Of a stretch of 64,000 nt of DNA, positions 4,636-25,117 are shown one piece after another; within the stretch, counting starts at the first letter, position 1; each line of letters opens with the position of its first letter. The notes below the pieces were generated by a model. That model was given only the letters and a program-made list of their open reading frames with translations. It was not told the origin of the DNA and ran no database searches. This DNA comes from an uncultured archaeon (GTDB lineage Archaea; Iainarchaeota; Iainarchaeia; Iainarchaeales; GCA-2688035). The stretch covers positions 8,420-72,419 of the forward strand of contig CAYHBD010000010.1 in the NCBI GenBank assembly GCA_964354805.1. Direction: 5' to 3'. The translations under genes were made by a program, and so were the position numbers.

Positions 4636-5186
4636 AGCTCGGGATTTTTGCAGCAATTACTGTTCTCGCATTTTTGTTCACTGAGATTTGGCAGCAGGCT
4701 TTTCTTTTCCTTTTCAGCCTAATGGTGCTGCTGCTCAGCAGATACAAAGAGGTGCACAAATTATTCTTTGGCATGCTTCCGTTCCTGCTGCTTGTTGATT
4801 TTTCGTTTTACTTCTTCTTTTGGAACACAACTCTTGACCTGAACAAATTGGTAATAGCCTCAAACCTGAGGATTCTGTCGATTTTGTTTGCGGCAACATT
4901 CTTTGTTTTCTCTACAGACTTGTACAAGGCAGCCAAGTTTATGGAAAAAAAGCATTTTCCGGAAAGCATTTATTTGCCGTTCTATGTAATGTTGCGTTTT
5001 CTGCCTGAACTGGAAAGAGACCTGGTTGAAATAAGAAGCATCCAGAAAACAAGGGGCATTACTGCAAAAAAACCATTCAAATACCTGAAATCAATTCTTC
5101 TGCCCCTGCTTTTCACAATGTTCGAAAAAGCAGAAGACATCTCAATCGCCTACTACCTGCGGAAAAAAAGGGAAAAAGCTATTTAG
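4584..5186 (+). CDS. ecfT: ECF transporter T component
   Basis: TM helices plus LRFLPEL..IQKTRG motif. Confidence 0.85.
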   Translation: MFQYSGKSLFSKQPEWLKLGIFAAITVLAFLFTEIWQQAFLFLFSLMVLLLSRYKEVHKLFFGMLPFLLLVDFSFYFFFWNTTLDLNKLVIASNLRILSILFAATFFVFSTDLYKAAKFMEKKHFPESIYLPFYVMLRFLPELERDLVEIRSIQKTRGITAKKPFKYLKSILLPLLFTMFEKAEDISIAYYLRKKREKAI

Positions 5187-5226
5187 CTGACCATTGCCTG
5201 TTCAATGCCGGAAGGAAAAAATCCGT

Positions 5227-6489: not shown

Positions 6490-6554
6490 TTGAAAACTCA
6501 CCAATAGAAAGCGAACACAGAAAGGGTTTTTAAATAAATGCAGCGAAAACGAAA

Positions 6555-7982: not shown

Positions 7983-8098
7983 AAACAGTAAATTAAAACA
8001 GCAAGGTAGTATTAAAAGCTTGGGGATGGACTCAGAACAGGGCAATGTTTTTTGGCTGCAAAAACAACTTTTTTAAACTGTTTGAAAGCAAATATTGT

Positions 8099-9556: not shown

Positions 9557-9566
9557 TTCAAATTTT

Positions 9567-10154
9567 CTATTCCAAGCCAATTCTGTCTTTTATTTTTTTA
9601 ATTGCCTCTATAGATAAAGTAAAAAAATCGTCCATAGGCAGTCCAGCCGGTTCTATTTCTTTGACTAGCTCTCTGTTGCAATTTGCCGCAAATTTTTTGT
9701 CATTGAATTTTTTCTTTAATCCTTTTGCGTCCATTTCTGAGATTCTTTTTCCCCTCATTAAGGCATATGCATAAATGATTCCGGTCAATGTTTCGGCAGC
9801 GGTAAGACAATGCTGTATTTTTGAGTTTCTTTTTTTGTCTTTTAACAGGGGAATTTCATCATAACCAATCCCATGAGATTGTACGTTTTCTATGAATGTA
9901 TCATCAAAACCTTTTGCTTTCAGTATTTCTACTGCTTTAATGCAGTGTTCTCTCCAATCATTTCTTGTTAATGCCCAATCAACGTCGTGTAATAAGCCGA
10001 GCATCCCCCAATACTCAATGTTTTCGCCAAATTTTTCAGCTAACGCCCTCATAATCGCTTCTGTTTCTAAATAATGGTTCATATCAGAATTAGCTTGGGG
10101 CATACTTTTCAGTAAAACAATTGCTTCTTCTCTTGTTATCGGCAAACTATTCAT
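9567..10154 (-). CDS. HD-domain hydrolase
   Basis: H..GLLHDVDW..H..SH pattern and LKKKFNDKKFAANCNRE tail; AT-richer than neighbours. Confidence 0.85.
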   Translation of the reverse strand: MNSLPITREEAIVLLKSMPQANSDMNHYLETEAIMRALAEKFGENIEYWGMLGLLHDVDWALTRNDWREHCIKAVEILKAKGFDDTFIENVQSHGIGYDEIPLLKDKKRNSKIQHCLTAAETLTGIIYAYALMRGKRISEMDAKGLKKKFNDKKFAANCNRELVKEIEPAGLPMDDFFTLSIEAIKKIKDRIGLE

Positions 10155-10191
10155 TTTCTCACATTGGTTTATTGACCTATTTAACAGCCAG

Positions 10192-10284
10192 TGCACGGGG
10201 GCGGTTTCAACACGCCACTACGTAGGCGTGGTTGTGCCCGTTCGACCCAACAGGGCTTCTTCGAAGCCCTATGCACGGGGGCGG
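10192..10284. repeat. 13-bp exact direct repeat of the tRNA-Leu 3' end (10192-10204 / 10272-10284) enclosing two hairpins
   Basis: tgcacgggggcgg occurs twice, 80 bp apart; degenerate match continues (tttcaa vs gttcga). Confidence 0.75.
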
Positions 10285-10452
10285 GTTCGAACCGCCGAAC
10301 GCACTAAGCGACAGGATTTCGCAAGCCCTCTCTTTGTTTTCTTTTTCCCAGGGCTTTTCTTGGCGAAGCCCTTTTTCTTTCCCAAGGCTTTCTTTTTTCA
10401 AAAAAGAAAGGCTTCTTGAGTCCTGCGGGTTTGACCGCTTCCCTACCCGTGC
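10272..10452 (-). tRNA. tRNA-Leu(CAA) with 97-nt intron at 37/38 (10318-10414)
   Basis: Acceptor GCACGGG/CCCGTGC+A; CAGGA-CTCAAG|A-TCCTG anticodon arm; long variable arm; GGTTCGAAC T loop; relaxed BHB. Confidence 0.92.
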
Positions 10453-10500
10453 ATTAAGATAATTTTAATAAGAAAAAGGAATATTAAAAGCTTGCCCTTC

Positions 10501-10905
10501 TCAAAATTCGAGCAAATCCCCGACTTTTATCATCGGGAACCTGCCTTCCGCCCTGACAAAGATTGCACCGTGCTCTCCTTTCACCATGGCATTGGGGCTC
10601 TTGCTTCCTAACTGCAAATCAATGATGCGCAATTGCGTAGCCTGCACTTTTGTTTTCGCCTTTTTGCTTATTACACCGCTTGCAACAATGCCCTGCAGCA
10701 TTAGGCTGTCCTGCACATGGAAAACCCCGGTAACCTGAAAGGCATTGCCCATCATTGGCGTTTCAGCAATTGTAACTATTTCGTCCTTTACCTTTTTCTT
10801 TTCTTTAAGCTCAACTTCCATTGCCTTGCGCTTGCTTGCCTCAGGAATGCACACTCCAAGGCTGCGCTTTTTATCCTTTTCAAAAAGGCGCTGCAGAATC
10901 TCCAT
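10501..10905 (-). CDS. Small protein with EF-Tu domain-2-like beta barrel
   Basis: FQVTGVFHV..LQGIVASGVI..IIDLQ..GEHGAIFV..IKVGDLLEF. Confidence 0.6.
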   Translation of the reverse strand: MEILQRLFEKDKKRSLGVCIPEASKRKAMEVELKEKKKVKDEIVTIAETPMMGNAFQVTGVFHVQDSLMLQGIVASGVISKKAKTKVQATQLRIIDLQLGSKSPNAMVKGEHGAIFVRAEGRFPMIKVGDLLEF

Positions 10906-10923
10906 AACCAACCCTCTGCTCCC

Positions 10924-11007
10924 TTATATTATAGGTTATACTTAATCTCGCCCACATGAGGCTAAACAACTTCTCCTCTTCCCCAACCTTTATATTATAG
11001 GTTATAC
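10924..11007. repeat. 18-bp direct repeat ttatattataggttatac (10924-10941, 10990-11007) in a divergent intergenic region
   Basis: Exact repeat seen in sequence; contains a TATA-like core. Confidence 0.75.
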
Positions 11008-11044
11008 CTAAATGATTAAAAAATTGCCCATTCTTACTATTATC

Positions 11045-11530
11045 ATGAAACCGGCTGTTTACTGGAGAAGTGCCCTTGGCCTTTTCTGGGCATTCATGTT
11101 CTTCATTCTATTGTCACTTGTAATAGGCTTAACCTACTTGGAGAAGCTTGTCTTCTACCCTTATGCGATTTTTTTAAGCGCAATCCTTATTGTTTTCCTT
11201 GCTGCATTCGCATTATTCAAAAAAAGGTCAAAGGCAGGGCTTTACCTTTGCTTAATCCTCTCAGCACTTTTTGCATTAAACCAGATTGCGACACTTTTCA
11301 TTCTGTTAACCCAGCCATCTGAAATCCTGCCAACAGAGGTATTCAGCGCAGTTGCCAGCCTGCAGTCAACGCCCTTCCCGTTGATTGTTTCAGCCCTGCT
11401 TTTAATCTGGGCTCTGCTGCTCTGCATTGTCACCTGGAAGAGCAGGCCGTTGTTTGCGCCTGACATGCAAAAGGAACAAATTGCATGGTTTGAACAGGTG
11501 CAAAAAACAGAGGCTTATTCCTTCAAATAA
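11045..11530 (+). CDS. Membrane protein, 4 TM
   Basis: Hydrophobic segments. Confidence 0.7.
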   Translation: MKPAVYWRSALGLFWAFMFFILLSLVIGLTYLEKLVFYPYAIFLSAILIVFLAAFALFKKRSKAGLYLCLILSALFALNQIATLFILLTQPSEILPTEVFSAVASLQSTPFPLIVSALLLIWALLLCIVTWKSRPLFAPDMQKEQIAWFEQVQKTEAYSFK

Positions 11531-11631
11531 CGGCTTTGCCGAAGCAAGTTTTATGCTCAATTTATTCTTTCTTTCCCCACAATGTCAAGCATCAAAATAT
11601 TTCTTTTTTGTTTCATTGCTTGGCATTGTGC

Positions 11632-11716
11632 CAAGGCTTTCTTTTCTAAAGAAAGGCTTGCCGAAGGCATTTTTTCCCAAGCCTTTTGCACCGTAGTGCA
11701 AAAGGCTTGCCGAAAG
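11632..11716. repeat. Two intergenic palindromic modules of the family found in tRNA introns
   Basis: Minus strand reads AAGCCTTTTGCACTACGGTGCAAAAGGCTTGGGAAAA and AAGCCTTTCTTTAGAAAAGAAAGCCTTGG. Confidence 0.75.
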
Positions 11717-11749
11717 AATAAAATACAAGTTTAAACATAAAGTAAAGCA

Positions 11750-12196
11750 ATGAAAAAGGAAATTTTCTTAATTGTTTTTCTTTTTGGTGCTGTTGCTTTA
11801 AGCGGCTGCACTCAACCAGGGTCTGTTACTGTTTTCAAATACGTTTGCTTTGATGGCACGGTTGTGGAAAATCAATCTGATTGCCCTGCATTGCCTGATG
11901 TGAATTGCGAGCTAAGCTGCCCTTGCTCATGCCCCACGCCTGTTTTGCCTGAGACAAGCCAGGAGGAATTCATTCAGGGCCAGATAGATAAAGCAAACTA
12001 CTGCTCTGTAAAAGAGGACTGTGTTCTGGCTGAAAGCAAGTGCCCCTTCGGCTGCACTATTTTCGTCAACAAGAGCGAACTTGCCAGAATAAACAAAATA
12101 ATCAGCGAATACAGGCAAGTATGCAATCTTTCCTGCACGCCCCTGAAATACTATAACTGCGATGAAAACAAGTGCGTTGAAACAGACTGGGGTTAA
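11750..12196 (+). CDS. Cys-rich lipoprotein
   Basis: Signal peptide with LSGC lipobox; YVCFDGTVVENQSDCP and ANYCSVKEDC..CPFGC motifs. Confidence 0.8.
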   Translation: MKKEIFLIVFLFGAVALSGCTQPGSVTVFKYVCFDGTVVENQSDCPALPDVNCELSCPCSCPTPVLPETSQEEFIQGQIDKANYCSVKEDCVLAESKCPFGCTIFVNKSELARINKIISEYRQVCNLSCTPLKYYNCDENKCVETDWG

Positions 12197-12252
12197 AGGG
12201 CTGGCAACTCGGGCGAAAGAATAAAATAGGGGTTTGGCGTATAATTAATTAG

Positions 12253-12441
12253 GTGAATGCTTTGTTTAGATTTTTCAGGAGAAGAAAACTAATTCCTGTC
12301 CCTGCTTCCGGCAACACTCCGGGTGACAGAAGAGTTAGACCACCGATAATGACCGGCGTTCATCCATCTGTGGGAAGGGTTTACTTTGACCGATTTCTTG
12401 AGTTGTGGAAGCCAAACAAAAGAAAATCAAAAGAGCAATAG
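12253..12441 (+). CDS. Small Arg-rich orphan
   Basis: GTG start; MNALFRFFRRRK; own promoter-like sequence. Confidence 0.45.
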   Translation: MNALFRFFRRRKLIPVPASGNTPGDRRVRPPIMTGVHPSVGRVYFDRFLELWKPNKRKSKEQ

Positions 12442-12517
12442 CTGGAATTTTGCCCGAATTATTCTTCCCCTTAATTTTTCGCAGGGGCTGTAAGGAAATG
12501 CTTACAGTTTAGTGCAG

Positions 12518-12580
12518 TTACCTTAGTGTAATATAATAACCATTCTTATTTAAATATATTCGCTTATTACCTTAATGTAA
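12518..12580. promoter_or_regulatory. Two TTAC-N6-GTAA palindromic operators flanking a TATA box
   Basis: ttaccttagtgtaa 12518-12531 and ttaccttaatgtaa 12567-12580, with tttaaata between them. Confidence 0.6.
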
Positions 12581-12595
12581 CATTGAGGTGTTTTT

Positions 12596-12751
12596 GTGCC
12601 AAATCTACAGTTTTCAAAGGGCAGATGGAGCTTAACCATTCCTTTTGAAATGGTTGAATCAAAAGGCTGGCAGAAAGGCCAGCGCCTGCTATGCAATTTC
12701 AACGCCCAGGGCAACATTGAATTAAGCGAATTAAAGCCAAAAACAAAATAG
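12596..12751 (+). CDS. AbrB/MazE/SpoVT-type DNA-binding protein (51 aa)
   Basis: Not in ORF track; GAGGTG RBS; MPNLQFSKGRWSLTIPFEMVESKGWQKGQRLLCNFNAQGNIEL. Confidence 0.75.
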   Translation: MPNLQFSKGRWSLTIPFEMVESKGWQKGQRLLCNFNAQGNIELSELKPKTK

Positions 12752-12867
12752 GCCTGCTGCTCGTTTTCTGCCGTTGTAAAGCGCAGGTTTTTAAAGCTTT
12801 TTTTGAGGAAAAAGGTTTTTATAGTAGAAAAGCCTTTTTGTTACAAAACAAAGAAGGGAAAAAAAAG

Positions 12868-13314
12868 ATGCCTAAAGCACTGTTTTATATTGAGGGCAAA
12901 AACGTGCAGCATATTGGTTGCAGGCTAATTGTTACAAAACAATTAATCCACACTGGGCTCACTAAAGGCGGGGCATTCAATTTGCCTGACGGCAGGGTTG
13001 AAATTGTTTTGGAAGGGAGCGAAGACCAATTAAAAAACGCCCACAACTATATTAAAGACAATTTGATTGAATGGATAAAGCAATCAGCAAACGAAAGGGA
13101 AGAACTAAAGCGATTGATTGGAAACCCAAAGCCTGATGTCAAAATCAGTGAATTAGAGTTTAACGATTCACTGCTTGTGCTTGACATTGGGTTATTCAGC
13201 CATTCATTAACCTTTGACCAAATATACAAGGGAATAGACGTTTACAAAGATTTAACAAAATCAATCCTGCTTCTTAATCAAACACTAAAAAACAAAAACT
13301 CAGCCGGGAACTAA
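12868..13314 (+). CDS. Acylphosphatase-like protein with C-terminal extension
   Basis: GKNVQHIGCR..FNLPDGRVEIVLEG retains the catalytic R and N. Confidence 0.8.
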   Translation: MPKALFYIEGKNVQHIGCRLIVTKQLIHTGLTKGGAFNLPDGRVEIVLEGSEDQLKNAHNYIKDNLIEWIKQSANEREELKRLIGNPKPDVKISELEFNDSLLVLDIGLFSHSLTFDQIYKGIDVYKDLTKSILLLNQTLKNKNSAGN

Positions 13315-13646
13315 AAGAAGGCACTATTATAGTGAAAAAAGAAAGAGTAGCCTTCCGCTGCTGGCACTGCTTTGAATAGCTGATTGTTTTTCCTTGCTTT
13401 GAAAGGAACTTGGCAATATCCCGAACAGAACCATTTTGGGGAGCAGAACCTTCTTTGCCCTTAACATGTTTGCCTGATTTATAAGCACTGTAAAACTGTT
13501 TTACAGTGCCTGCTTTTGATTGCAGCCATGCTCTCGCTAAAACAATCGAGCCCTCTACATCGTGAAAGTCTGTGTCCCGCTGCTCCGGCAACAAATGCCT
13601 GCTGCTTGAATTTTATATAAAACTCTAAAAAAAGCAAAAGGAGGCG

Positions 13647-13725
13647 GGGCGGGAAAAAAAGAGAAAAAAACCCGCCCTGTTTTTTTTTCAAATAGCAGGC
13701 GTTGAAACGCCTGCTGCTTTTTCTT
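13647..13725. terminator. GC-rich hairpins with T tracts
   Basis: gggcggg..cccgccc followed by a T run; agcaggcgtt-ga-aacgcctgct 13694-13715. Confidence 0.5.
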
Positions 13726-13831
13726 TTTTTTCAAGCAATTGCTTTGTCTTTTCTATTTCTTCCATTTAAATGCACTGCTTGAAATAAGCCGGGAAAAAAT
13801 TGAAACCCGTGTGGCGCATAACAAAACCCTT

Positions 13832-14197
13832 TCAGGCAATTTGTGTTTCAACCAGCTGCCTTGACCACATGAACAAAACCAAGACAACAACAAGGATTAA
13901 AATAATCCAGCCGAAAGAAAAAAAGAAGCCTACAACATCAAAGCTGGTGGCGAAGCTTTCCTGACTGGCTTGAACAACATCCTGCAGCTGTGCCTTTATG
14001 CCCGCATCCTCAATTGTTGAAAAGCTTTGCTCTGCATCAGCAATCAGCGACTGCCCTTGTGCCATGAATGAAATATTTATCAATTGGGTGAATGGCAAAA
14101 GCAGGGCAAACAAAAACAGCAGGAAAATGGAGAGCGAAACGAAAGCCATGAACAAGGAAACACTGCCCCTGCCGCCTAATTTTTTTATCTCAAACAT
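13832..14197 (-). CDS. Element membrane protein with N- and C-terminal TM; candidate virion protein
   Basis: KKLGGRG followed by a hydrophobic helix (class III-like processing site); second TM at C-terminus; GGTGTG RBS. Confidence 0.7.
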   Translation of the reverse strand: MFEIKKLGGRGSVSLFMAFVSLSIFLLFLFALLLPFTQLINISFMAQGQSLIADAEQSFSTIEDAGIKAQLQDVVQASQESFATSFDVVGFFFSFGWIILILVVVLVLFMWSRQLVETQIA

Positions 14198-14245
14198 TTG
14201 CCATCACACCAACACACATATTATGTGCCTTCCAATTAAAATTTT

Positions 14246-14497
14246 TTACGCTCCGATTTTTTTTTCAATTGCCACAATTTTTTCCAATGTAGTTTTTTTC
14301 ATTTCACTCTCTGGCCATCGCTCAACTTGCGCTTTCAGCAAGCCCACTTCAATTTTCTGAAAGCCTGATATTGTTTTGCGCTCCTCGCTGCCCAGGTTCT
14401 TCTTCGCAGCTCGCTTTTGCAAGCGAACAAACTGATTAAGACAACTAAAAACGCTTTCAAAGTCCAAATACATCAAACCACCTCCTTTTTCGTTCAC
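14246..14497 (-). CDS. Hypothetical protein (element)
   Basis: Co-directional ORF; GGAGGTGG RBS before MYLDF. Confidence 0.55.
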   Translation of the reverse strand: MNEKGGGLMYLDFESVFSCLNQFVRLQKRAAKKNLGSEERKTISGFQKIEVGLLKAQVERWPESEMKKTTLEKIVAIEKKIGA

Positions 14498-14543
14498 TTT
14501 CCCGAGATAAACAATCTAAATTAAACACAACCCAACATATTCA

Positions 14544-15455
14544 TTACACTTTTAGCCGCCCTGTTGAAATCAGGGCATTTAATGCTCGCTGCAAGTTCCT
14601 TGAAACAACTTCACCACAGGAGAAATGCGCTCTAATCAAACCCACGTCAGCATAAGGCTTTCCCCTTTTATCAATGCCCGTTAAGTCTTTAATCTGCCGA
14701 ACGGCTTCCTCAAGCAATGGCTTGAAATCAATCTTTTCAATCGCCTTACCTTTCTCCCGCAGCAACTGCTCGTGCCACCTGGCAAGATTAACATCAATGT
14801 AATCAGCTTTCTTTTTCTCATAAGCGTCAACCAGCTCTTTTCTCGGCAGCGGAATAGATATTTTATCAATCCTTGAAACCTCGCCTTTCACATCCCTAAC
14901 CCTGGGCTTTGGCATATACTGTTTCCCGCTCATAGCCGAAACAGTGCTCCAGTAAAACTGTGCAAAACTGCGCTTGCTGCGAAAATCAATGCTCTCAAAC
15001 TTTGCAATGCCCGTTATGCCAACCTTGCGCACAACACTGTCAATTTGTGAAATCATGGGTGCACACATGAAAACAATAAACCCTTTTGCCCTGTAGGTTG
15101 TAACTGTGAAATTCATCCGCTTGTTTTCCTTTGTCATCGCATTCCGGGCGCTCGCTGCCTTTTCGCTGCCAGCAATTTCATCAAAAAGAATAACGCTGCC
15201 CCGCTTTAATTTTCCCTTTGAATCCCCGTTTCGCATAAGCCCAATAAAGTCTTCAACACTGAAAACAATGCGGTCGCTATTAAAGCCCGAATCCAAGTCT
15301 TGCCCAAAACGAATAGCTGCCGTGCTTTTGCCCGTGCCAGGCTTCCCAATAAACAAGAACGTGCAGTTTTGTTTTTGGCGATAAATATCCCGCCAGACCT
15401 GGCGATAAATGAAATTTCTTTTGATTTTCAACGGCATTACCTGCGTCATACTCAT
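14544..15455 (-). CDS. P-loop ATPase (Zot/B251-like; putative packaging or extrusion ATPase)
   Basis: Walker A GKPGTGKS, RIVFSVEDF, Walker B VILFDE, YRAKG..IDSVVR. Confidence 0.75.
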   Translation of the reverse strand: MSMTQVMPLKIKRNFIYRQVWRDIYRQKQNCTFLFIGKPGTGKSTAAIRFGQDLDSGFNSDRIVFSVEDFIGLMRNGDSKGKLKRGSVILFDEIAGSEKAASARNAMTKENKRMNFTVTTYRAKGFIVFMCAPMISQIDSVVRKVGITGIAKFESIDFRSKRSFAQFYWSTVSAMSGKQYMPKPRVRDVKGEVSRIDKISIPLPRKELVDAYEKKKADYIDVNLARWHEQLLREKGKAIEKIDFKPLLEEAVRQIKDLTGIDKRGKPYADVGLIRAHFSCGEVVSRNLQRALNALISTGRLKV

Positions 15456-15925
15456 TCCTCAAAATCAAAGTTTTTGCTTTTCACCGGCATCAAATTTGCT
15501 GCTCCAAACTGGGAAATGAGCAAGTCTTGAAGCTCACTCAACAAATCAAGGTATTGGTCAACCCCGTCATTAAAAAAAAACGTTTGCCCGTTTACCTGAA
15601 CCTGTTCAAGCAGCCGCAGCCGTATTTTTGCCCCGTTTATTTCCAATACATATTTTTGGTGCATTTTTGTTTTCAGTTTTGCGGACTTTGTTTTGTAGTC
15701 TTCCGTTAAAAAAGAGTTCAGCATGCTCTCAATCGTTCTGATTGCAGAATAAGCTCCTCTTGCAACCGCAACCCGCCCGTCAAACGTTTTGCGCCTCGCT
15801 TGCGAAACAGAAACCAAAAAATTATAACGGTCAAGTTCCTGCAAAACCAAGTATTGCAGGTTTGTTCGTTCATTGCGAATGTCCTCCACATTCATGCTCG
15901 CCAGAAAGCCCGTTTCCTCACTCAT
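15452..15925 (-). CDS. Hypothetical protein (element)
   Basis: ATGA-coupled to both neighbours. Confidence 0.7.
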   Translation of the reverse strand: MSEETGFLASMNVEDIRNERTNLQYLVLQELDRYNFLVSVSQARRKTFDGRVAVARGAYSAIRTIESMLNSFLTEDYKTKSAKLKTKMHQKYVLEINGAKIRLRLLEQVQVNGQTFFFNDGVDQYLDLLSELQDLLISQFGAANLMPVKSKNFDFEE

Positions 15926-16308
15926 TTAGTTTTCGCCTCCGCTTTTTCAATCAAGTCCGAAAAATCGCAGCCTTTTGGCTCGGACTTAAAAACCACTGCA
16001 AGCAACAGTTTGAGTTTAAAGTTTGCTGCCCGAACATTCCTAAATTTTTCCTCGCAATCTTGGTTTTGGCGAAAATCCAAAACGGCCTGCTCAAAACCTT
16101 TTTCGTCAGGAATCAGGCCTCGGGCGAAAACAATAGCTTCAAGGTTGTCCACTGCTACGCTAAAATAAATCATGCCATCCTCAAACTTTCCGAGTTCTGC
16201 GCTTTTTGGCAAAATGTTCAACGCAGCCCACAAAGCCGCATCGGTGCATCGTTCCGCCAAATTCTTCCTGCTAAAACCTGACCATTCGTTATCTTCCTGT
16301 TTTTTCAC
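15922..16308 (-). CDS. Hypothetical protein (element)
   Basis: GAGGTG RBS; coupled to the next ORF. Confidence 0.65.
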   Translation of the reverse strand: MKKQEDNEWSGFSRKNLAERCTDAALWAALNILPKSAELGKFEDGMIYFSVAVDNLEAIVFARGLIPDEKGFEQAVLDFRQNQDCEEKFRNVRAANFKLKLLLAVVFKSEPKGCDFSDLIEKAEAKTK

Positions 16309-16313
16309 CTAAA

Positions 16314-16574
16314 TCACCTCATTGATTTTTTTTTATAAAAAAAAATTGGGCGCTTCATTACAACTCTCTGGCTTTCAAAAAAGTCACTACGCCAGCATTC
16401 AATCTTTGAAACAAAAAAACCCTGCGCCTGCAATTCCCGCAGCTCACTCTCGGTTTTAGGCACGGCCATCTCAAAGGCTGACGGGTAAACCATCTGCGGC
16501 AGGCGGCGGGATGGAGTGAGCCGCCTGCCTTTTAACTTGGAGGTTTTTTTTCCACGAATTAAAATATGTTTCAT
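16314..16574 (-). CDS. Basic hypothetical protein (element)
   Basis: MKHILIRGKK..; ATGA overlap with the upstream 59-aa ORF. Confidence 0.55.
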   Translation of the reverse strand: MKHILIRGKKTSKLKGRRLTPSRRLPQMVYPSAFEMAVPKTESELRELQAQGFFVSKIECWRSDFFESQRVVMKRPIFFYKKKSMR

Positions 16575-16750
16575 TTTGCAACCCGCCCAGCAAATTTTCC
16601 ATGTAAATAAAAAACATAAACCCCAAAAAGGAAAACAATTGCAAGCACAGCGAAAGCCAGCAGAATATTCAAAATGGAAAAAAGCAGGCCAATGCCACAG
16701 GCCGCAACAGCAAGCAGCAAGCAGGCAACAGCGAGCAAAAGTTTTTTCAT
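16571..16750 (-). CDS. 59-aa two-helix hydrophobic protein (element)
   Basis: Not in ORF track: MKKLLLAVACLLLAVAACGIGLLFSILNILLAFAVLAIVFLFGVYVFYLHGKFAGRVAK; ATGA coupling at both ends. Confidence 0.7.
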   Translation of the reverse strand: MKKLLLAVACLLLAVAACGIGLLFSILNILLAFAVLAIVFLFGVYVFYLHGKFAGRVAK

Positions 16751-16998
16751 TCAACCATCACCCACCACACGGTTGTAGAATTTGAAACTTCAATTTTAAC
16801 AAGTCCAGCGATACGCAATTCTTGCAAAGCAATTATTGTTTCGGTTTCCGAAAAACCGTTGTTTGGATTTCCATAAATCTCCCAAGCCAAAAAATGCTTA
16901 TCGCTTGGTCGCGTTTCCGCTCTATTCCAATTCGGCATTTTCACGTTTTTGGCTTTTGGCAATTCAAGAATCTTTTTCAACAAGAGTTGCTGTTGCAT
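16747..16998 (-). CDS. Small winged-helix-like protein (element)
   Basis: ETIIALQELRIAGLVKIE..TTVWW wing pattern; AGGTG RBS. Confidence 0.5.
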   Translation of the reverse strand: MQQQLLLKKILELPKAKNVKMPNWNRAETRPSDKHFLAWEIYGNPNNGFSETETIIALQELRIAGLVKIEVSNSTTVWWVMVE

Positions 16999-17317
16999 AG
17001 TGTTCACCTTCCAAAAAACTTTGTTTTGACTCTAATTTTTGGCGTTTGGCTTCAAGCCAATTTTTTAGCTCGCTTTCCAAACCCTGTAAGTATTCAGGGA
17101 CTGCGGTCATGCGCCAAATTTCTTTTGCTGCCTCAAGGTCTTGTTCAAAAATTGTTTGGCGTTTTTGTTGCCTGGTGAGAAAAGCCGCGCACTTCAAAAA
17201 CTGTTTCGTTTCCTTTTGCATTGCGCGGTCTAAAGCCAAGCGGGATTTGCCTGATATCCGAATGCCTAACTCTTTTATTAACTCACTAACCGCTGCGCTT
17301 CGCAATAACTTGCTCAT
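16964..17317 (-). CDS. Archaeal histone-fold protein with C-terminal coiled-coil extension
   Basis: Aligns by eye to HMf: AAVSELIKELG-IRISGKSRLAL..AAFLTRQQKRQTIFEQDLEAA (L1 RIS, L2 RxTIxxxD); GGAGG RBS. Confidence 0.85.
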   Translation of the reverse strand: MSKLLRSAAVSELIKELGIRISGKSRLALDRAMQKETKQFLKCAAFLTRQQKRQTIFEQDLEAAKEIWRMTAVPEYLQGLESELKNWLEAKRQKLESKQSFLEGEHYATATLVEKDS

Positions 17318-17523
17318 AAAAAAACCTCCTGAGATTCTATTACAATAGGCGCAATATCAGCCCTTTTTTTAAGCAAACCAATGGATTGGAGCGCAAAATC
17401 AGCGCGCAATGTTGAAAAGAGGCAAAACCAAGCGCGCTGCCCTATAGCAAATGGCTTTTGAACACGTTCGAAAATGCGAACCGGTTTTTTCTCATTGATT
17501 TTTGACTGCAAATCACTTTCCAT
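17314..17523 (-). CDS. Hypothetical protein (element)
   Basis: Coupled small ORF. Confidence 0.5.
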   Translation of the reverse strand: MESDLQSKINEKKPVRIFERVQKPFAIGQRAWFCLFSTLRADFALQSIGLLKKRADIAPIVIESQEVFL

Positions 17524-17818
17524 TCAAAACACCAACCTGCTGCGTTTTTTTCAAAATATATCCTGTCGCATCAAAAGGGCTATTTGGAATAAAGCAATGA
17601 GCGCACCGGTGCCCAAGCCCCCGGCCATGTTTGTGCAAACAATGGCAGAAATCGCACCAAAACTGCCAGCCGCCCAAAAAATCCTGCCTGGGTTCAACCA
17701 AAACGATTGGAATGCCGTCTTTGTGGCCTAAAATAACAGTTTTTTCAGGCATTTGCAACCACTCCCTCTCCGTTTTGTGTGGGCGGTCTGCCACTCTGGG
17801 CATTCTTACCCACGACAT
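17513..17818 (-). CDS. Small Zn-binding protein (element)
   Basis: FWCDFCHCLHKHG..HRCAHC motif. Confidence 0.6.
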   Translation of the reverse strand: MSWVRMPRVADRPHKTEREWLQMPEKTVILGHKDGIPIVLVEPRQDFLGGWQFWCDFCHCLHKHGRGLGHRCAHCFIPNSPFDATGYILKKTQQVGVLNGK

Positions 17819-19337
17819 ATTGCTCTGCCCTCTTTTTCTTCCGTTTTTTAGCCAAAACAGCCTGTTTTTCGATTGTTCCAAAATTTGTTACTCCCGATAT
17901 GCGGTGCAATTCATGCAATTCATTTTCATTTGCATGATTTGCATTAATTGCATTATTTGTATCAACTGCATGAATTGCATTAATTTCTATTTCTTCCCAT
18001 TTTGGTATTGAAAAAGTAAGAACATCTGGAAGGGGTATATAAATTGCGACATCTTTTTTGGATTCCTCAACATGGGTTTTGGTTTTTTCCAAAAAGCCAA
18101 GCTGAACCAATCGGTCAAGTGTATTTCGTAACCAGCGTTCTTCCCATCGAGAAAATCGTATATTTATGTTTTGTAGGGTTCCCCCATCTGGGAAGTATTT
18201 TATCAAAATTTCAATCAGTTCCTTTTCTTCTCTCGCAAGTGGAATCATCAAAGAATTGCTTGTTGTTTGCAATAAAGCAATTCTTGCATTTCCATAATCT
18301 TCCGGAGTAGCAAGTATTTTTCCCTGCAAATCTTTTTGTCTTTGGTGTTGGTGCAAACAGGCGCTTCCTTTAATATAATCAAGGAAGCGGGAGAAAATTG
18401 TTCGTTGAATAACCTGGCAATTCCTTGATTTTTTTATCCAGTATTCAGCTAATGCGTGGGTTATTTTTTCTGCATATGGAATAATCACTTCAATGAAATC
18501 AAGGCCGTAATAAAATCTTTTTGCCAATTCATTTTTTTCTTCTTGTTCTTGTCCTGCATCCTCACTCGCCTGTTTTAAATTTATTTGTAATGTTTGTTGT
18601 GAACTTTCATCCATGTACAAGAAAGGCAATCGCCTCAGTGCTTCATCTCCAGCTTTTACCTTTGCTGCGGTTGTGAGAAATGTTGGTTTGCCTTTAATAC
18701 TCAAATCTTTTGCTGCTCCCTCATGCACGATTGTAACTGTATTTATTTTGTTTGGGTTTGCGCTCATCAGAGTTTTGACTGATTCGGAATTTAAAATTTT
18801 GCTGTTCACATCTTCGAGATAAACAAAATAGTTATTCCAATCTCGGTTCTGATGGCGAGCCAACGCATAATCCAACGCTTTTTCGCTTACTCTTCGCCTT
18901 GCAAAAATGTTTTCCTCAGGAAAAATATTAAGCGTTTCACTTACTACAAAATCTTTTCCTGTTCCTGGGGCAGCATTAGCACAGAGGTTGCTACTTGTGC
19001 TTCTTTTATTTTTTACTTTTGCAAGACAACAAATAAGAATAATTGTTTTAATGGAATTTGTTTCGCCGACAACACTTTTTTGCACTTCGATTGTGAGGTT
19101 ATTTAAAAGTTGTGGCTGGGATAAATATGCTATTAGTTCTGGGTTGGAGTCAATTTGTATTGCCTCTTCTTTTTTTCCTTGCATTTCACGTTCCAACTCA
19201 GCGAGTTCAACAACCTCTTTTTTTACTAAAACCATTGCAATTTTGTAATCAAGCTTTACAATACTACCTTTCGGTTGTTCTCCAGTGAGTTTAGTGTAAT
19301 CTTCAAATTTCAAAATTTTGCACAGCACTTTGCTCAT
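17745..19337 (-). CDS. Replicative helicase-like AAA+ ATPase with C-terminal wHTH
   Basis: VVGE, Walker A APGTGKD, Walker B VYLED, EALRR arginine finger, ATPEDY, LDRLVQLGFL wHTH; coupled to the primase. Confidence 0.75.
   Translation of the reverse strand: MSKVLCKILKFEDYTKLTGEQPKGSIVKLDYKIAMVLVKKEVVELAELEREMQGKKEEAIQIDSNPELIAYLSQPQLLNNLTIEVQKSVVGETNSIKTIILICCLAKVKNKRSTSSNLCANAAPGTGKDFVVSETLNIFPEENIFARRRVSEKALDYALARHQNRDWNNYFVYLEDVNSKILNSESVKTLMSANPNKINTVTIVHEGAAKDLSIKGKPTFLTTAAKVKAGDEALRRLPFLYMDESSQQTLQINLKQASEDAGQEQEEKNELAKRFYYGLDFIEVIIPYAEKITHALAEYWIKKSRNCQVIQRTIFSRFLDYIKGSACLHQHQRQKDLQGKILATPEDYGNARIALLQTTSNSLMIPLAREEKELIEILIKYFPDGGTLQNINIRFSRWEERWLRNTLDRLVQLGFLEKTKTHVEESKKDVAIYIPLPDVLTFSIPKWEEIEINAIHAVDTNNAINANHANENELHELHRISGVTNFGTIEKQAVLAKKRKKKRAEQYVVGKNAQSGRPPTQNGEGVVANA
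17907..17987. repeat. Degenerate 9-bp tandem repeats inside the helicase 3' end
   Basis: tgcaattca tgcaattca .. tgcatgatt tgcattaat tgcattatt tgtatcaac tgcatgaat tgcattaat. Confidence 0.7.
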
Positions 19338-20185
19338 TTTCTCGCCTCCAGCAAACACAAATCACAAATAGAGCGCTTTCCAATCGAGCCAGCAAATTTC
19401 TGAATCTGCTTGCAATTAAATTCCGGCTTATACTGGCCCCAACACTTCAACCGAGCAACTGTTAAGTTTTCTTGTTGCTGGGTTTCAACAAGCTTTTGCA
19501 GCAAAGTTTCATTGCCTCTAAAATATGCAAAGGCGTTGGGAGAAAAGCGGCTATTCTGTTGTTTGTTGTTTAAATCAATTTTGTTGTTTAAGCCGTATTC
19601 AAAAAAAGGGCAGTGTTTTTGATTATCTATTCTCCCTGAGGGAGTCTTATACATAAATTTTTTTTCGTTCTCTTTTTTTACCGCTTCAACAATTTCCTGC
19701 GGCAAAACATTCGTTCCCTTTGCTTCTCGAATCAGTATTTTTAACCTGCCTGTTTTGCGATGTGGTGTTCCTGCAATATGCCACATCCGTTTGTTTCCAA
19801 AGTTTGCCTCATCGAAACTTTTGGAAAGTTCTTCATTCGTCAGCCATAGTGTCAGTGCTTTTTTTACCATTGGGCGAATCTCTGGCTCAATTAATTCAAG
19901 CCCCTGCCATTCCATTTCAAGATGGAAGCTTTTATTTCCGCCATCATAATATTGGTATGCAATACCTTTCATATCGAGCAGCGAGCAAACAAAATTCATG
20001 ACCTGTTTGTTTGTTTCTTTTTGTTCAAAATCTGTTTCAAGGCAAAGTTGTTCTGGCCTGATTAATTCGTAATTTGGTTCACTTTTCATTTCTTTTTTCC
20101 ATTGTTCAGGCGTTCTCCACTTGCTCCACCCATCTTTGTATTTTTTTAGGTTGCCTTCAGCAACAAGGTAAAGAAATTCACTCAT
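19334..20185 (-). CDS. AEP primase(-polymerase) with Cys-rich C-terminal domain
   Basis: LETDFE (motif I), GNKSFH (motif II), GTPHRKTG; C-terminal HCPFF..FNCKQIQ..ICDLC. Confidence 0.75.
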   Translation of the reverse strand: MSEFLYLVAEGNLKKYKDGWSKWRTPEQWKKEMKSEPNYELIRPEQLCLETDFEQKETNKQVMNFVCSLLDMKGIAYQYYDGGNKSFHLEMEWQGLELIEPEIRPMVKKALTLWLTNEELSKSFDEANFGNKRMWHIAGTPHRKTGRLKILIREAKGTNVLPQEIVEAVKKENEKKFMYKTPSGRIDNQKHCPFFEYGLNNKIDLNNKQQNSRFSPNAFAYFRGNETLLQKLVETQQQENLTVARLKCWGQYKPEFNCKQIQKFAGSIGKRSICDLCLLEARK

Positions 20186-20282
20186 CAAAATTCCCCCGGC
20201 AAACTTCGCATTCCCCGCATAATTCGGGCATAAAAAGGCAAAAGCGAGGACACCAAATAGCACGAAAAATTTTAAGGCTCAT
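20178..20282 (-). CDS. 34-aa Cys-rich peptide (element)
   Basis: MSLKIFRAIWCPRFCLFMPELCGECEVCRGNFDE; overlaps both neighbours; GGAGG RBS. Confidence 0.45.
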   Translation of the reverse strand: MSLKIFRAIWCPRFCLFMPELCGECEVCRGNFDE

Positions 20283-20454
20283 GTCTGCTTCCTCCATTTT
20301 TGTTTTCAATCGCAGACAGCCTGCTGGCTACATCCATTAACCTTTCTTCAGCCTGTCGCAGCCTGGAGTTTAAGGCTTCAATTTCTTCCTGCTGTCGTTC
20401 AAAAGAGCGGGCAGGGTGGCTGGTGCAAAAGCCTGTGTTGAGGCTGCTACGCAT
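20272..20454 (-). CDS. Small coiled-coil protein (element)
   Basis: Heptad pattern IEALNSRLRQAEERLMDVASRL. Confidence 0.5.
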   Translation of the reverse strand: MRSSLNTGFCTSHPARSFERQQEEIEALNSRLRQAEERLMDVASRLSAIENKNGGSRHEP

Positions 20455-20635
20455 GAGGCAACACCTCAACTTTTTGAATCAGGGAAAAAGCAAAAACTTG
20501 GGGCAATCCAAACTTATCAATCATGCCGAGCTTATCATCCGTAACAGAAATTATTTTGCCTGAATACACCCTCTGTTGTCCGCAATCAAAAACAACAACC
20601 TTGCAAAATTTTCCAAGAAAAAGTTTCCAATCCAT
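20447..20635 (-). CDS. Small Sm/SH3-like beta-barrel protein (element)
   Basis: GAGGA RBS; LFLGKFCKVV..RVYSGKIISV..DKFG..FSLIQKVEV. Confidence 0.6.
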   Translation of the reverse strand: MDWKLFLGKFCKVVVFDCGQQRVYSGKIISVTDDKLGMIDKFGLPQVFAFSLIQKVEVLPHA

Positions 20636-20697
20636 TTCCTCACCTTTTTTATTTTTTTTCTCGCCTTCGCAGCTCGGCGCAAACCGCTTGAAAAAAT

Positions 20698-20835
20698 TCA
20701 TTCGGCATTTTTTTCAGCCTCCAGCGCAGAATGGAGCAGATGCAGCAGCAAGGCCGTGCGTGTGTTGAATTGTTGTTTTTTTGCGTCAATGCGCCCAAGT
20801 AATTCAGCTGGGCAGTTGAATTGAACCAAAGGCAT
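20698..20835 (-). CDS. Ribbon-helix-helix protein (45 aa)
   Basis: Not in ORF track; AGGTGA RBS; MPLVQFNCPAELLGRIDAKKQQFNTRTALLLHLL. Confidence 0.65.
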   Translation of the reverse strand: MPLVQFNCPAELLGRIDAKKQQFNTRTALLLHLLHSALEAEKNAE

Positions 20836-20995
20836 TATTTTGTCACCTGAATGTAATGGTGCGGTTGGAATTTATAAATGTTTTTCTTTTTTTTACTACT
20901 TTTTTTTGTGGTAGGTATTGCTTTTTCTACTACTAAAATAAGGTTTTAATGGGAAAGCCATAGTTTTATAAAGAGAAACCCCTATTATTTGTAGT

Positions 20996-21982
20996 ATGCC
21001 TACTACTGAAAGAAAAGAGCTGGAAGACCTTGCAAATTGCTTGGGAACACCAAAAACAAGCAGGGTTTTGCAGTTAATTGAGCTTTCAAACAATGGGCTG
21101 CTGATGCAAGACCTCTTTTCCCTGCTTAACGCACCAAAAGACAAGGGCACCCAGGATGCTTTAAAATTGCTGCAAGAAAGTGGTCTTATTGAAAAGCGAA
21201 AAGGCACAAACGTAAAAACAATCAGGGCAACATGGCAGCAAGAGCGCAACAAACTGCCTGCGCTGATCGAAATAAATATTGATGCAGGCCTGCGTTTTGG
21301 CTCGAGGTTTTTTTGCAAGCAAAACCCGGTTGCGCTTTTCTTTGAAAAAATAATAAACAAAAATGGGTTGAGCAAAGAACAGCAAGCGCTTTCTCCTTGC
21401 CTTGATGCAATTGGAAAAGAGATTGCGGCGAGATGGGAATGGCAAAAGCTGGCTGTTGATTTTAACACAGAACTACTGCCTGCTTTTGCTCAAAACTTTG
21501 AAAGCATTGGCAAAGAATTGGGAAATGCGTCTTTAAACAAAATATTAATAGCTAAAAAGGGCGCTGCAGAAGGTTTGGAAATGCTTAATCAAAAAACGAT
21601 TGAGGTAATGGAAGAAATGAAGAAGGAAAAAAAAGCAGGCCGTTTGGCTTTTGTTGCAAGCCTGAAAGAAGAAAAAACGCTTTCCACACATTTGGATTAT
21701 GTTTCACATATGCTGCAGCGCTTGCTTGTTGAAGAATTTATTCAGCACTACACCCGCTTTTATGAGTATGTTGCAAAAGAGCAAGCGCCGGCAATTGATT
21801 TGGATAAAATAAATTTTATTGTTTCCCTGCTGCAAGAGGTTGAATCACGCCTTTCAAAAAACGCCCTTGTTTTTGAGATTGTTTCCCGCTTGCAAAACTT
21901 CAACAACCTTTTAAGCGTTGCAATGGAGCAAAGGAAAACAATGGTGCTTTTGGAAAATAAGAAAGTGGCAGAAGGCAATTAG
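20996..21982 (+). CDS. Winged-helix regulator with long helical C-terminus
   Basis: LANCLGTPKTSRVLQLI..TQDALKLLQESGLIEKR; divergent from the main element operon. Confidence 0.65.
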   Translation: MPTTERKELEDLANCLGTPKTSRVLQLIELSNNGLLMQDLFSLLNAPKDKGTQDALKLLQESGLIEKRKGTNVKTIRATWQQERNKLPALIEINIDAGLRFGSRFFCKQNPVALFFEKIINKNGLSKEQQALSPCLDAIGKEIAARWEWQKLAVDFNTELLPAFAQNFESIGKELGNASLNKILIAKKGAAEGLEMLNQKTIEVMEEMKKEKKAGRLAFVASLKEEKTLSTHLDYVSHMLQRLLVEEFIQHYTRFYEYVAKEQAPAIDLDKINFIVSLLQEVESRLSKNALVFEIVSRLQNFNNLLSVAMEQRKTMVLLENKKVAEGN

Positions 21983-23280
21983 CCGTTTTCTGCCAGTATT
22001 TTTTTATTCATCCCCGTTTTCTGCGCCATTTTTACCATGAATCCCAAAACTTCTTTTTGCATTGCCGGGTTTTTGAATGCCAATTGCATTGTTTCAATCA
22101 GCAGGTTGTTTTCTTTGCTTTCTTTTGCCAGCACGTTGTCCAATCCGAGTGTTGCTCCGCATTGCTCGCAAAATCCATTGCTTTCTGTGCTGCTGCAAAT
22201 CGGGCATTCTTTTGGCATCATGCAATTGCCTGCGTTCAGTTCAAAGTATGGCTTCTCAAAGTCCACCGGCTTTATATGCGTATAATTCAGGCTAATCCTT
22301 TTGCTTTTGCTCCACCCAAACCAAGCATACTTTATATCCTCGCCCCAGCCGCTGCATCTGCTGGCCATCATGTGCCTGAAAACGCTGGTTGCCTTTCTTT
22401 CAGGCAATTCAACGCCGCCTGCTGCAAAGGCTCGCAGAACCAGCTGTCGTGCAGCAACATAGCTTAGCCTGTTGCCAAAGCGGTCAGGGAACAATGGTGC
22501 TTCTTGGTTATCGTGTTGGTAATTCTGCAGCCATTTTGTAATGTATGGCTTGCAGAGATAGCCGATAACCGTTCTCGGTTTGGTTTTTGAAACAGGAAAG
22601 TGCAGCAGCAGATAGTTTTTTCCCTCTGCCTGCTTTATGTCGCTTACGTTCATGCCAACTGCTTCGGTTATTCGGCATCCAGCATCATTCATAATTGAAA
22701 GCAGTGCCTGGTTGCGGAAATAGAGCGGGCTGTTTGCCCTGACCAGCTTTGATGCCCTTATTGTTTGCCCTTCTCTTTGTGCCTTGCTTACCAATGCGTG
22801 TTTTTCTATTATGCCCTTAATCTGTTCCTGTGTGGGCAGTTCAATTAAATCTTCTACATCAGGCCGCTTGGGCATCTCAATGTTGTCAATTGCCTCAGGG
22901 TATTTGCCCTTTTTCATGTTGAAATGGTATCGCAAAAACTTTTTTGTCAGCCAAAAGTATTTCTCTACGCTGCCCCAGCTTAATGAACCTTTATCCATTC
23001 TGTCAAGCATGGAATTGAACCAAGCTTCGTTATCTGCTGCTGTTATGGCTTCAACGTTTTGCTTGTTGTGCCACAGCAGGTAATGATAGCTCACATCCAA
23101 GTCTTTGCATTGGGTGTTAATTCTTGCACCCTTGTCTTTTGCGTTGTATCTCACAAGAGCTTGCTTGCATTCTTCGCTCAATTCGCTGTCCTGAATTTTT
23201 TGCAGCAGGCCTGCTGTTTCTTTTCGCCTATTATGAATATCAATCTCTTCTTTACCATTTGAATTAGGCTTCGCAGCCAT
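21979..23280 (-). CDS. Tyrosine recombinase/integrase with C-terminal Zn ribbon
   Basis: AGCRITE (R), SKT (K), FRH, FGWS..NY (Y); CPIC..FCEQCG; adjacent to the tRNA. Confidence 0.92.
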   Translation of the reverse strand: MAAKPNSNGKEEIDIHNRRKETAGLLQKIQDSELSEECKQALVRYNAKDKGARINTQCKDLDVSYHYLLWHNKQNVEAITAADNEAWFNSMLDRMDKGSLSWGSVEKYFWLTKKFLRYHFNMKKGKYPEAIDNIEMPKRPDVEDLIELPTQEQIKGIIEKHALVSKAQREGQTIRASKLVRANSPLYFRNQALLSIMNDAGCRITEAVGMNVSDIKQAEGKNYLLLHFPVSKTKPRTVIGYLCKPYITKWLQNYQHDNQEAPLFPDRFGNRLSYVAARQLVLRAFAAGGVELPERKATSVFRHMMASRCSGWGEDIKYAWFGWSKSKRISLNYTHIKPVDFEKPYFELNAGNCMMPKECPICSSTESNGFCEQCGATLGLDNVLAKESKENNLLIETMQLAFKNPAMQKEVLGFMVKMAQKTGMNKKILAENG

Positions 23281-23361
23281 TCGCAATCACCTCACTTTAG
23301 GGCTGCATTACTACACCGCAACCCTTAAAAAAGGCAACTGCGAATGAACTGCGAACACTGA

Positions 23362-23577
23362 CGCAGGGGCTGGGATTTGAACCCAGGCTCCCTTTCGAGA
23401 ACGAGCTCGCCGCAATTTTCGCTTGAAAAAGAAACCAATTTTCTTTTACTGAATCTTTTCTTTTTCAAAAAGAAAAGGCTTGTTTTGCAAAGCAAAACCC
23501 CTTTTCCCCAGGCTTTTTTGCGGAAGCAAAAAAGGCTGTTAGCAGGCTCGCGCGTTAAACCACTCCGCCACCCCTGC
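23362..23577 (-). tRNA. tRNA-Ser(GCT) with 132-nt intron at 37/38 (23408-23539)
   Basis: Acceptor GCAGGGG/CCCCTGC+G; CGAGC-CTGCTA|A-GCTCG; long variable arm; GGTTCAAATCC. Confidence 0.92.
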
Positions 23578-23634
23578 AGCTAGAAAATATTAACGGTGAA
23601 AACAATTAAAATTCATCGGTTGCAAAGTTTCTTT

Positions 23635-24031: not shown

Positions 24032-24316
24032 ATGAGCGAATTTTTGTTTCTGGATGTTGTTGCAGTCATAGCCGGTGTGGCGGCGATTCACTTTGTTTTG
24101 AAAGCACAGAAGCACTTTGGATTGCTAGTCCAGCCTGCTTTCCAGCTGCTTACAACAGTAATCGGCCTGCTGATGGCGACAATTGTTGCGAAATACTTCG
24201 TTGAAAAAGAGGGCGCGCTGAGCGCGTTGAACAACGCTGTAATAATCGGAATGCTGCTGGCGATCTGCATGGCAATGTGGATATTTAACCAAAAAATGCC
24301 GAGAATAAAAAAGTGA
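24032..24316 (+). CDS. Small 3-TM membrane protein
   Basis: Hydrophobic segments. Confidence 0.65.
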   Translation: MSEFLFLDVVAVIAGVAAIHFVLKAQKHFGLLVQPAFQLLTTVIGLLMATIVAKYFVEKEGALSALNNAVIIGMLLAICMAMWIFNQKMPRIKK

Positions 24317-24546: not shown

Positions 24547-25117
24547 ATGGATTAATAATATGATAAAGAGAACTGGATTTAAATAAAAAGCTTGCTGAAT
24601 TGGCGTTTTGCAAAAAAATTGGATTATTGCACACTGCTTTTGATTGCAGGCGATGCAATAAAAACAGCGAGAAAAAAAGCGCTTTAACCCGCTTATACGT
24701 GCAAAGAAGCGAAATTAACACTTTTTTCAGAAAATAGGGCTTTGTTAATTGCTTAATGCAATGCAGGCCCTGTTTTGTTATGGCTGTTTTTAAATACCAA
24801 TGCAAAATGCATTATACATAATTCGGGGGGCGTTATTCTTGCTTTGTTTCAGAAAAAGAAGAAAATCCTGCTTTTATACATAAAAGGGAACCTATATTAA
24901 GCACTTTGGGTATAATATTAGCGCAGTTTTTCAAAGTGTTGCATTAGGGAATAAAAAAATTTCATTTGCAATATTTTGATCAAAGTGCTGCAGAGGGGTG
25001 TAATTTTATTATCTTTCGCAGCGCTTTGTCACAATGCCAAGCAGCGAAAACAAAAAACAAATGTTCTTTAGCTTGACATTGTGTTGCTGTTAAAATTTTT
25101 TTGAAAGGGGTGGTAAG

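Follow-up and report, generated by a model that had tools for sequence, protein, structure and literature searches.

A candidate satellite of spindle-shaped viruses integrated at a tRNA-Ser gene of an Iainarchaeales archaeon

To our knowledge, pSSVx and pSSVi are the only archaeal satellites whose status has been shown by experiment, the elements called SRCEs being inferred circles. pSSVx and the SRCEs join plasmid replicons with an ATPase and/or a major capsid protein (MCP), and pSSVx carries homologs of B251 and A154 and is packaged by SSV2 (10.1101/2025.02.15.638363; PMC9608457). pSSVi is integrated in the chromosome and is amplified upon helper infection (PMC8371274). The current study concerns an element of 10.9 kb at positions 12480-23372 of a 64,000-nt stretch of DNA (the window; assembly GCA_964354805.1, contig CAYHBD010000010.1, positions 8,420 to 72,419 of the forward strand) from an uncultured archaeon of the order Iainarchaeales, in keeping with the DPANN host proposed in an initial annotation made from the sequence alone. 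As the element holds borrowed parts of two lemon-shaped viruses, hitch-hiking on spindle-shaped viruses is its most likely way of life. We propose, with a probability of roughly 0.6, that it is an integrative satellite of such viruses, resembling the phage-inducible chromosomal islands (PICIs) and working like pSSVx, pSSVi and the SRCEs. Numbers with G, C and L are our handles for genomes, contigs and loci.

Genes of two spindle-virus lineages

Four genes link the element to spindle-shaped viruses; the labels A, B and C for clades of ATPases and viruses are our own.

13832 to 14197, minus strand: tm121, a two-helix hydrophobic hairpin; paralog of spindle-virus MCPs and minor virion protein of clade-A viruses
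14544 to 15455, minus strand: AAA+ ATPase of the B251 family of spindle-shaped viruses, clade B (full-length match to LSV-48N; family hidden Markov model, HMM)
15452 to 15925, minus strand: o157, whose viral homologs lie immediately upstream of ATPases of clades B and C; analogous in position to A154 of SSV1
15922 to 16308, minus strand: o128, the gene that follows the clade-A ATPase in another virus lineage; the cognate ATPase is missing here

The sole match of the ATPase among 50,697 phage records is to the lemon-shaped virus LSV-48N (E=7e-17 over 94%), and the family HMM reaches SSV1 B251 (E=1.3e-10). The closest relatives, at 40-44%, belong to clade B and include the virus contigs L027 (40%) and L030, which also encode adhesins, a capsid hairpin and an integrase of the short type. 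Weak labels of the ATPase as Zot/inovirus, clamp-loader or DnaA were dropped, superseded by the full-length spindle-virus matches, and scans of IMG/VR with the ATPase confirmed nothing. The o157 protein matches the product of L027 9615-9995, a gene just upstream of the ATPase (E=1e-10); its model is a helical bundle (pLDDT 81) for which fold searches returned no clear match, and HMM comparison did not detect homology with A154 (E=0.5). The o128 protein, unrelated to o157 by profile comparison, matches L062 (E=4e-9), and its family lies downstream of clade-A ATPases in L055, L060, L061, L062 and nine further loci. When o128 and the clade-A ATPase of L062 were modelled as a complex, the score was 0.00, a value uninformative on binding either way. 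The tm121 family has 248 representatives, and tm121 itself is 61% identical to a gene of L055 that lies near the VP4-like adhesin of this clade-A virus. Its AlphaFold2 model is a helical hairpin (pLDDT 91), its alignment with MCPs (HH 92%, E=5.5e-7) makes it a distant paralog of the true clade-A MCPs, and a fold search retrieved one viral protein in BFVD (A0A5Q2WB46, TM 0.81) and, in the PDB, generic helical hairpins only. Among the virus contigs of clades B and C, which include partial ones, neither o128 nor tm121 was found. Because o128 and tm121 match clade-A viruses and the ATPase and o157 match clade-B viruses, without overlap in the contigs examined, the similarities indicate that the element mixes genes of two spindle-virus lineages. 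As a separate observation, a lone B251-type ATPase, 42% identical to that of the element, lies amid host genes without a surrounding element in another genome (L019 3700-4569, G003:C4).

The remainder of a virion module was not recovered. Profiles of both major-capsid types gave no match below E=0.02 inside the element, where tm121, a distant MCP paralog, belongs to a minor-protein family; profile searches of the element for C166-, B78-, A92- and B277-like genes gave nothing significant; and a VP4-like adhesin was not found, there being no open reading frame (ORF) longer than 537 aa and none with an adhesin layout. Complete circular genomes resembling spindle-shaped viruses are binned in the host order and represent candidate helper types: one of 32,954 bp (G010:C3; L025, L026, L144; terminal repeat 114 nt) and one of 21,861 bp (G024:C10; L095, L145; terminal repeat 55 nt). 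The initial annotation had offered a new provirus or virus-satellite family. Since the MCP, C166, B78, A92 and B277 profiles find nothing significant while complete relatives measure 22-33 kb, the provirus half of that proposal is not supported; the satellite half stands as the best reading, now tied to spindle-shaped viruses and to about ten sister elements. Judged by its gene content, the element is probably unable to make virions of its own, and a complete provirus it is not.

One could instead suppose a minimal self-sufficient virus or a capsid-forming satellite, with tm121 as its own coat and the ATPase driving extrusion. The hairpin fold and MCP paralogy of tm121 would suit this, as would its place at the end of the operon behind its own upstream gap, and some SRCEs encode both an MCP and an ATPase. 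However, in the helper-type viruses tm121 is a separate gene next to one or two true MCPs, adhesin and tail genes are absent from the element, and tm121 is missing in most of the sisters; we consider this explanation improbable.

Integration at the tRNA and the plasmid-like backbone

The element is delimited by two copies of an 11-bp att core, CGCAGGGGCTG, on either side of the interval.

12480 to 12490, minus strand: distal att core, 11 bp, duplicating the tRNA 3' end (last 3 nt of the T-stem, acceptor 3' strand and discriminator)
23362 to 23372, minus strand: proximal att core, 3' end of the intact tRNA
23360 to 23578, minus strand: host tRNA-Ser(GCT), the target gene, with a 132-nt intron at 23408-23539

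By chance, about 0.001 copies of the 11-mer would be expected in the 23 kb beside the tRNA. Two more, unrelated copies occur elsewhere in the genome, on contig C9, and therefore the core repeat by itself is no proof of an element. In G012, a genome of the same family, the site is empty: the homologs of window genes 24032-24316 and 11012-11530 adjoin the intron-containing tRNA-Ser(GCT), the end of which lies 169 bp from the second of them, and guaB and the next genes are collinear. This find of an empty attB, which the initial annotation had suggested seeking, confirms the integration of the element at 12480-23372 in an intron-containing tRNA-Ser and places the boundary at 12480. The core consists of the final 11 nt of the tRNA-Ser(GCT), within the 3' exon, and the tRNA stays whole with its intron untouched, as ARAGORN run with introns bears out; the gene is overlooked when the intron option is off. 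Nor are the genes of the element syntenic core genes: they are patchy in relatives, and of 196 genomes in the host order the helicase was found in 6 and the ATPase family in 17, too few for core genes. In elements with related integrases the repeats cover exactly the same 11 tRNA positions (L024, L114 and L098; 9.0, 9.5 and 10.6 kb, in tRNA-Cys, tRNA-Met and tRNA-Ser(CGA), respectively). Archaeal att sites usually span 40-60 bp, with 8-13 bp possible (PMC8371274); the 11-nt core to which the integrase family strictly keeps, at the 3' end of the tRNA, is shorter than most. Composition is mildly atypical (GC 41.3% vs 44.0%; a 4-mer distance above the median and outside the top eight of 105 windows) and was not counted as support. 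We conclude that this is a real tRNA-integrated mobile element with correct boundaries. The predicted excised circle measures 10,882 bp, and with both cores and all ORFs intact and one sister assembling as a circle, it is plausible that the element can still be excised.

Several features surround the integration site. Outside the core, at 11750-12196, is a host lipoprotein gene whose position shifts among relatives; between it and the distal core, a short ORF or remnant (12253-12441) is missing from the empty site of G012. Outside the cores the element is flanked by the two arms of a 60-nt inverted repeat (11578-11637 and 25023-25083), which are about 83% complementary and probably represent a host repeat. 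Many tRNAs of the host genome contain introns of 40-160 nt, and those of tRNA-Ser(GCT) (23408-23539) and tRNA-Leu(CAA) (10270-10452) hold A/T-rich hairpin units, present in about 17-20 copies genome-wide and resembling repetitive extragenic palindromes (REP) or miniature inverted-repeat transposable elements (MITEs). Further away, at 33882-34684, are fragments resembling transposases, which by their appearance alone recall IS66 and IS630.

The remaining features of the element, from the integrase end to the distal end, are as follows.

21979 to 23286, minus strand: tyrosine integrase, type II (uninterrupted), 435 aa, with a C-terminal zinc ribbon (PF00589 and DZR_2; alignment)
20996 to 21982, plus strand: divergent regulator of 328 aa with an N-terminal winged helix, inferred repressor (weak Atlas leads to helix-turn-helix, HTH, families; same place in sisters)
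20698 to 20835, minus strand: regulator resembling ribbon-helix-helix (RHH) proteins, opening the operon (sequence pattern and position common to sisters; no Pfam match)
20447 to 20635, minus strand: Sm/SH3-like small protein (PF17384 weak; 41% to L097)
20272 to 20454, minus strand: 60-aa coiled-coil ORF (homolog in L107)
19334 to 20185, minus strand: single-chain archaeo-eukaryotic primase, 283 aa, with ExD motif and C-terminal Cys cluster (phrog_16345, E=5e-6)
17745 to 19337, minus strand: MCM-related helicase of 530 aa, a Rep protein like those of pME2001/pMTBMA-type plasmids (PF27228, MTBMA_p00010_2nd)
17513 to 17818, minus strand: 101-aa Cys/His-rich ORF, probable zinc finger (sequence; no family matched)
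17314 to 17523, minus strand: 69-aa ORF (ORF call)
16964 to 17317, minus strand: histone-fold protein, 117 aa, with a C-terminal extension (PF00125, E=2e-5; HMfA alignment; Atlas 0.94)
16747 to 16998, minus strand: 83-aa ORF (ORF call; no family matched)
16571 to 16750, minus strand: 59-aa small membrane protein (hydrophobic; no match to MCP profiles)
16314 to 16574, minus strand: 86-aa ORF (coupled ORF; no Pfam)
14246 to 14473, minus strand: 75-aa ORF (ribosome-binding site and ORF; no family matched)
13315 to 13831, no strand: gene-poor stretch of about 500 nt that contains hairpins and may retain the remnant of an HTH gene (13274-13594, minus strand; HTH_38, E=0.26 only)
12838 to 13314, plus strand: cargo gene resembling acylphosphatases, probably starting with the ATG at 12868 (PF00708, E=2e-6; phrog_20167; absent at the empty site)
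12596 to 12751, plus strand: small AbrB-like regulator of 51 aa (sisters have a comparable gene close to their distal end; no Pfam match)

This arrangement bears out most of what the initial annotation had described: an uninterrupted integrase ORF (PF00589), a divergent pair of regulators (RHH-like 20835-20698, minus strand; winged-HTH-like 20996-21982, plus strand) and one long coupled minus-strand operon (20835-13832), whose 17 ORFs are free of internal stops and mostly overlap by at least 4 nt, with four gaps of 48-86 nt. Its gene list holds for the primase, helicase, histone fold, ATPase and transmembrane genes, the Sm-like and RHH assignments coming from motif or homolog similarity only; it had left out the distal 1.35 kb inside the element, with the plus-strand AbrB-like and acylphosphatase-like genes. 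The AbrB-like protein has weak tblastn matches in L024 and L112, and in L024 such a gene (12886-13035) lies immediately inside the distal core, as in this element. The integrase starts 75 nt from the core. In two genomes a 480-aa integrase subtype sits beside an scpA-like gene with no tRNA found (L023 3988-5424, L097 2135-3580), which points to a second, non-tRNA target site. An Rfam search gave no credible match.

The tyrosine integrase, divergent regulators, primase and pME2001-type Rep helicase form a backbone that, by its predicted functions, is plasmid-like, and the element can probably copy itself. The ExD motif and Cys cluster of the primase are kept in L107, L108 and L109. PF27228 is the Rep domain of Methanothermobacter plasmids, and relatives of the helicase (48-62%) lie on contigs of 2-12 kb; one is found in the host order (G140), on a contig whose helicase is named Candidatus Diapherotrites at NCBI, which points to an Iainarchaeales host for the element. 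A scan of genome contigs with the helicase gave no match, and a Hoc match on the helicase was treated as noise. Within the helicase gene, a 9-nt tandem repeat (17926-17994) encodes a low-complexity linker rich in Asn, Ala and His near the C-terminus. The histone of the element is distinct from that of the host, encoded on C29, and was not found in the 195 other genomes searched.

Sister elements and the place of the element among mobile elements

About ten sisters occur in the host order and in metagenomes. The layout of integrase, regulator, RHH, helicase and ATPase, without MCP or adhesin, recurs in eight elements (L023, L024, L106, L108, L112, L114, L115 and L116). The two ends of L108 (9,719 bp) overlap by 30 nt, as they would in a circular k=31 assembly, which is consistent with a free circle. 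This recurrence, in one case as a circle, argues against an eroded provirus, in which an integrated spindle-shaped virus would have lost its structural genes, as does the intact and tightly coupled state of all ORFs of the element. Moreover, its viral genes come from two ATPase clades never seen together in one virus, and its integrase is of the 435-aa type, whereas the integrases of the viruses are short (180-240 aa) and adjoin the ATPase. Erosion would agree with L107, which shares the primase (49%) and the helicase (57%) and holds more virion-type genes, and the 500-nt gene-poor stretch beside tm121 could be a deletion scar; overall we judge it quite unlikely. In the ATPase tree, the sequences of the capsid-less elements are scattered among those of viruses, a single clade being rejected (approximately unbiased test, p-AU 5.7e-7, with long branches present), and the nearest helicase sister (62%) has an ATPase just 26% identical. 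For these two reasons we prefer repeated capture onto one backbone over the decay of a single provirus. L096 has a tm121 homolog without the ATPase, and L106 and L107 contain other virion-type fragments. L106 and the virus contig L027 share one sample of origin (ERZ27271168). Two further loci join small and large terminase genes to a related integrase-Sm-helicase backbone (L097 6611-8303, G009:C3; L111 7536-9228, G015:C76); no capsid or portal match was found among their ORFs scanned, and they are possible satellites of head-tailed viruses.

Several observations weigh against a satellite. L098 and L109 are backbone sisters without any viral gene, L098 being a 10.6-kb element in tRNA-Ser(CGA) with radical-SAM-like cargo (1627-12330, G009:C3), and other sisters are damaged (a stop in the ATPase of L024, a broken integrase in L100); on these grounds the backbone is able to exist as a plain integrative plasmid. 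The satellite and virus labels in the ATPase tree are our own and several of its contigs are incomplete; the role of B251 in packaging is only implicated; and no helper virus was found in the element's own genome, which is 88.5% complete. The integrase retains its catalytic R, K, R, W and Y residues, with Ser in place of the first His of HxxR, a position that is also non-His in L101, L115 and L109. Cas1 was not found in the genome either.

The element might accordingly be an integrative plasmid or island, itself unpackaged, which uses captured viral genes solely to interfere with viruses and protect its host. The occurrence of the backbone with non-viral cargo only (L098, L109) suits this, the retention of o128 without its cognate ATPase suits a decoy, and the lone ATPase amid the host genes of G003 points the same way. 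Yet no conjugation or other transfer genes were seen, although the backbone is patchily spread over many families, and the genes recurrently kept are of packaging type (ATPase or terminase), as in known satellites. We hold this explanation to be unlikely, though the least so of the three alternatives.

For the preferred reading, a satellite of spindle-shaped viruses, we propose a series of steps in which packaging and current excision of this copy are inferred. In the integrated state, the divergent winged-helix regulator would keep the operon off, and infection by a helper virus or stress would induce it. The integrase would then excise the circle and the primase and helicase would amplify it. 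The B251-type ATPase and o157 may channel the circle into virion assembly of the helper at the membrane, comparable to the B251 and A154 homologs of pSSVx. Among the least certain roles, tm121 and o128, from the second helper lineage, would most likely redirect or jam the assembly of that lineage, and the histone may compact the circle. More tentatively still, these elements could make up a family of integrative DPANN satellites, similar to PICIs, in which one backbone changes its helper specificity by taking up another packaging module, be it a spindle-virus ATPase from one of several clades or a terminase of head-tail type. The present copy would then be armed against two spindle-virus lineages at once: it would be packaged via the first, would hijack or jam the second, and would bring a histone and a capsid paralog of its own. 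In Iainarchaeales, a family that is both integrative and regulated would add a layer of parasitism in small-genome archaea. The genes kept by the satellites (ATPase, its neighbour, minor hairpin) would point to the genome-selecting parts of spindle-virus assembly, a natural dissection of that process.

Comparison with known satellites and viruses

pSSVx is about half the size of the element, and pSSVi has an SSV-type integrase that is split on integration. Bacterial PICIs and capsid-forming PICIs (cf-PICIs) combine an integrase at att, divergent regulators, primase-helicase, packaging-interference genes and an accessory end in about 10 kb. The element is like them in layout alone and is not classed as a member; it is archaeal and aimed at spindle-shaped rather than tailed viruses, and we claim no sequence homology. 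The spindle-shaped viruses themselves (Fuselloviridae, LSV-48N and uncultured DPANN-associated contigs) share with the element a homologous ATPase, two ATPase-linked genes and the capsid-paralog hairpin; in contrast to them, the element has no detected true MCP, VP4-like adhesin or C166/B78- and A92/B277-like genes, and is one half to one third of their genome size.

Elements of this class have precedents in pSSVx, pSSVi and the SRCEs, and the hosts of SRCEs include nanohaloarchaea, which are DPANN archaea. pSSVx, a Saccharolobus satellite of the fusellovirus SSV2, resembles the element in its plasmid replicon, in a B251-family ATPase next to a small gene, in a regulator of AbrB type and in the lack of a full virion module (PMC9608457; 10.1101/2025.02.15.638363). 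Unlike the element, it is non-integrative (PMC1635272). The replicon of the element consists instead of a primase and a pME2001-type helicase, homology of o157 with A154 is undetected, and its viral genes come from two helper clades. pSSVi, a satellite of SSV1/SSV2, shares chromosomal integration (PMC8371274); the element differs in a type II integrase that is left whole and in the phylum of its host. The SRCEs of haloarchaea and nanohaloarchaea likewise combine plasmid-type replication genes with a spindle-virus ATPase and/or capsid hairpin, include DPANN hosts and have an inferred satellite status; they are circles of 2.7-9.0 kb, with no integration described in the portion of the report cited (10.1101/2025.02.15.638363). 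The element, by comparison, is a 10.9-kb, tRNA-integrated entity with a PICI-like regulatory switch and a histone in an Iainarchaeales host. In the literature surveyed we found no description of such elements in Iainarchaeota, the set of DPANN viruses and unclassified mobile genetic elements of Wu, Liu and Ni 2024 (Nat Microbiol) lying outside the comparison. The element belongs to none of pSSVx, pSSVi and the SRCEs: its replicon and the phylum of its host differ from theirs, its type II integrase is whole, its layout recalls the PICIs and its viral genes stem from two lineages.

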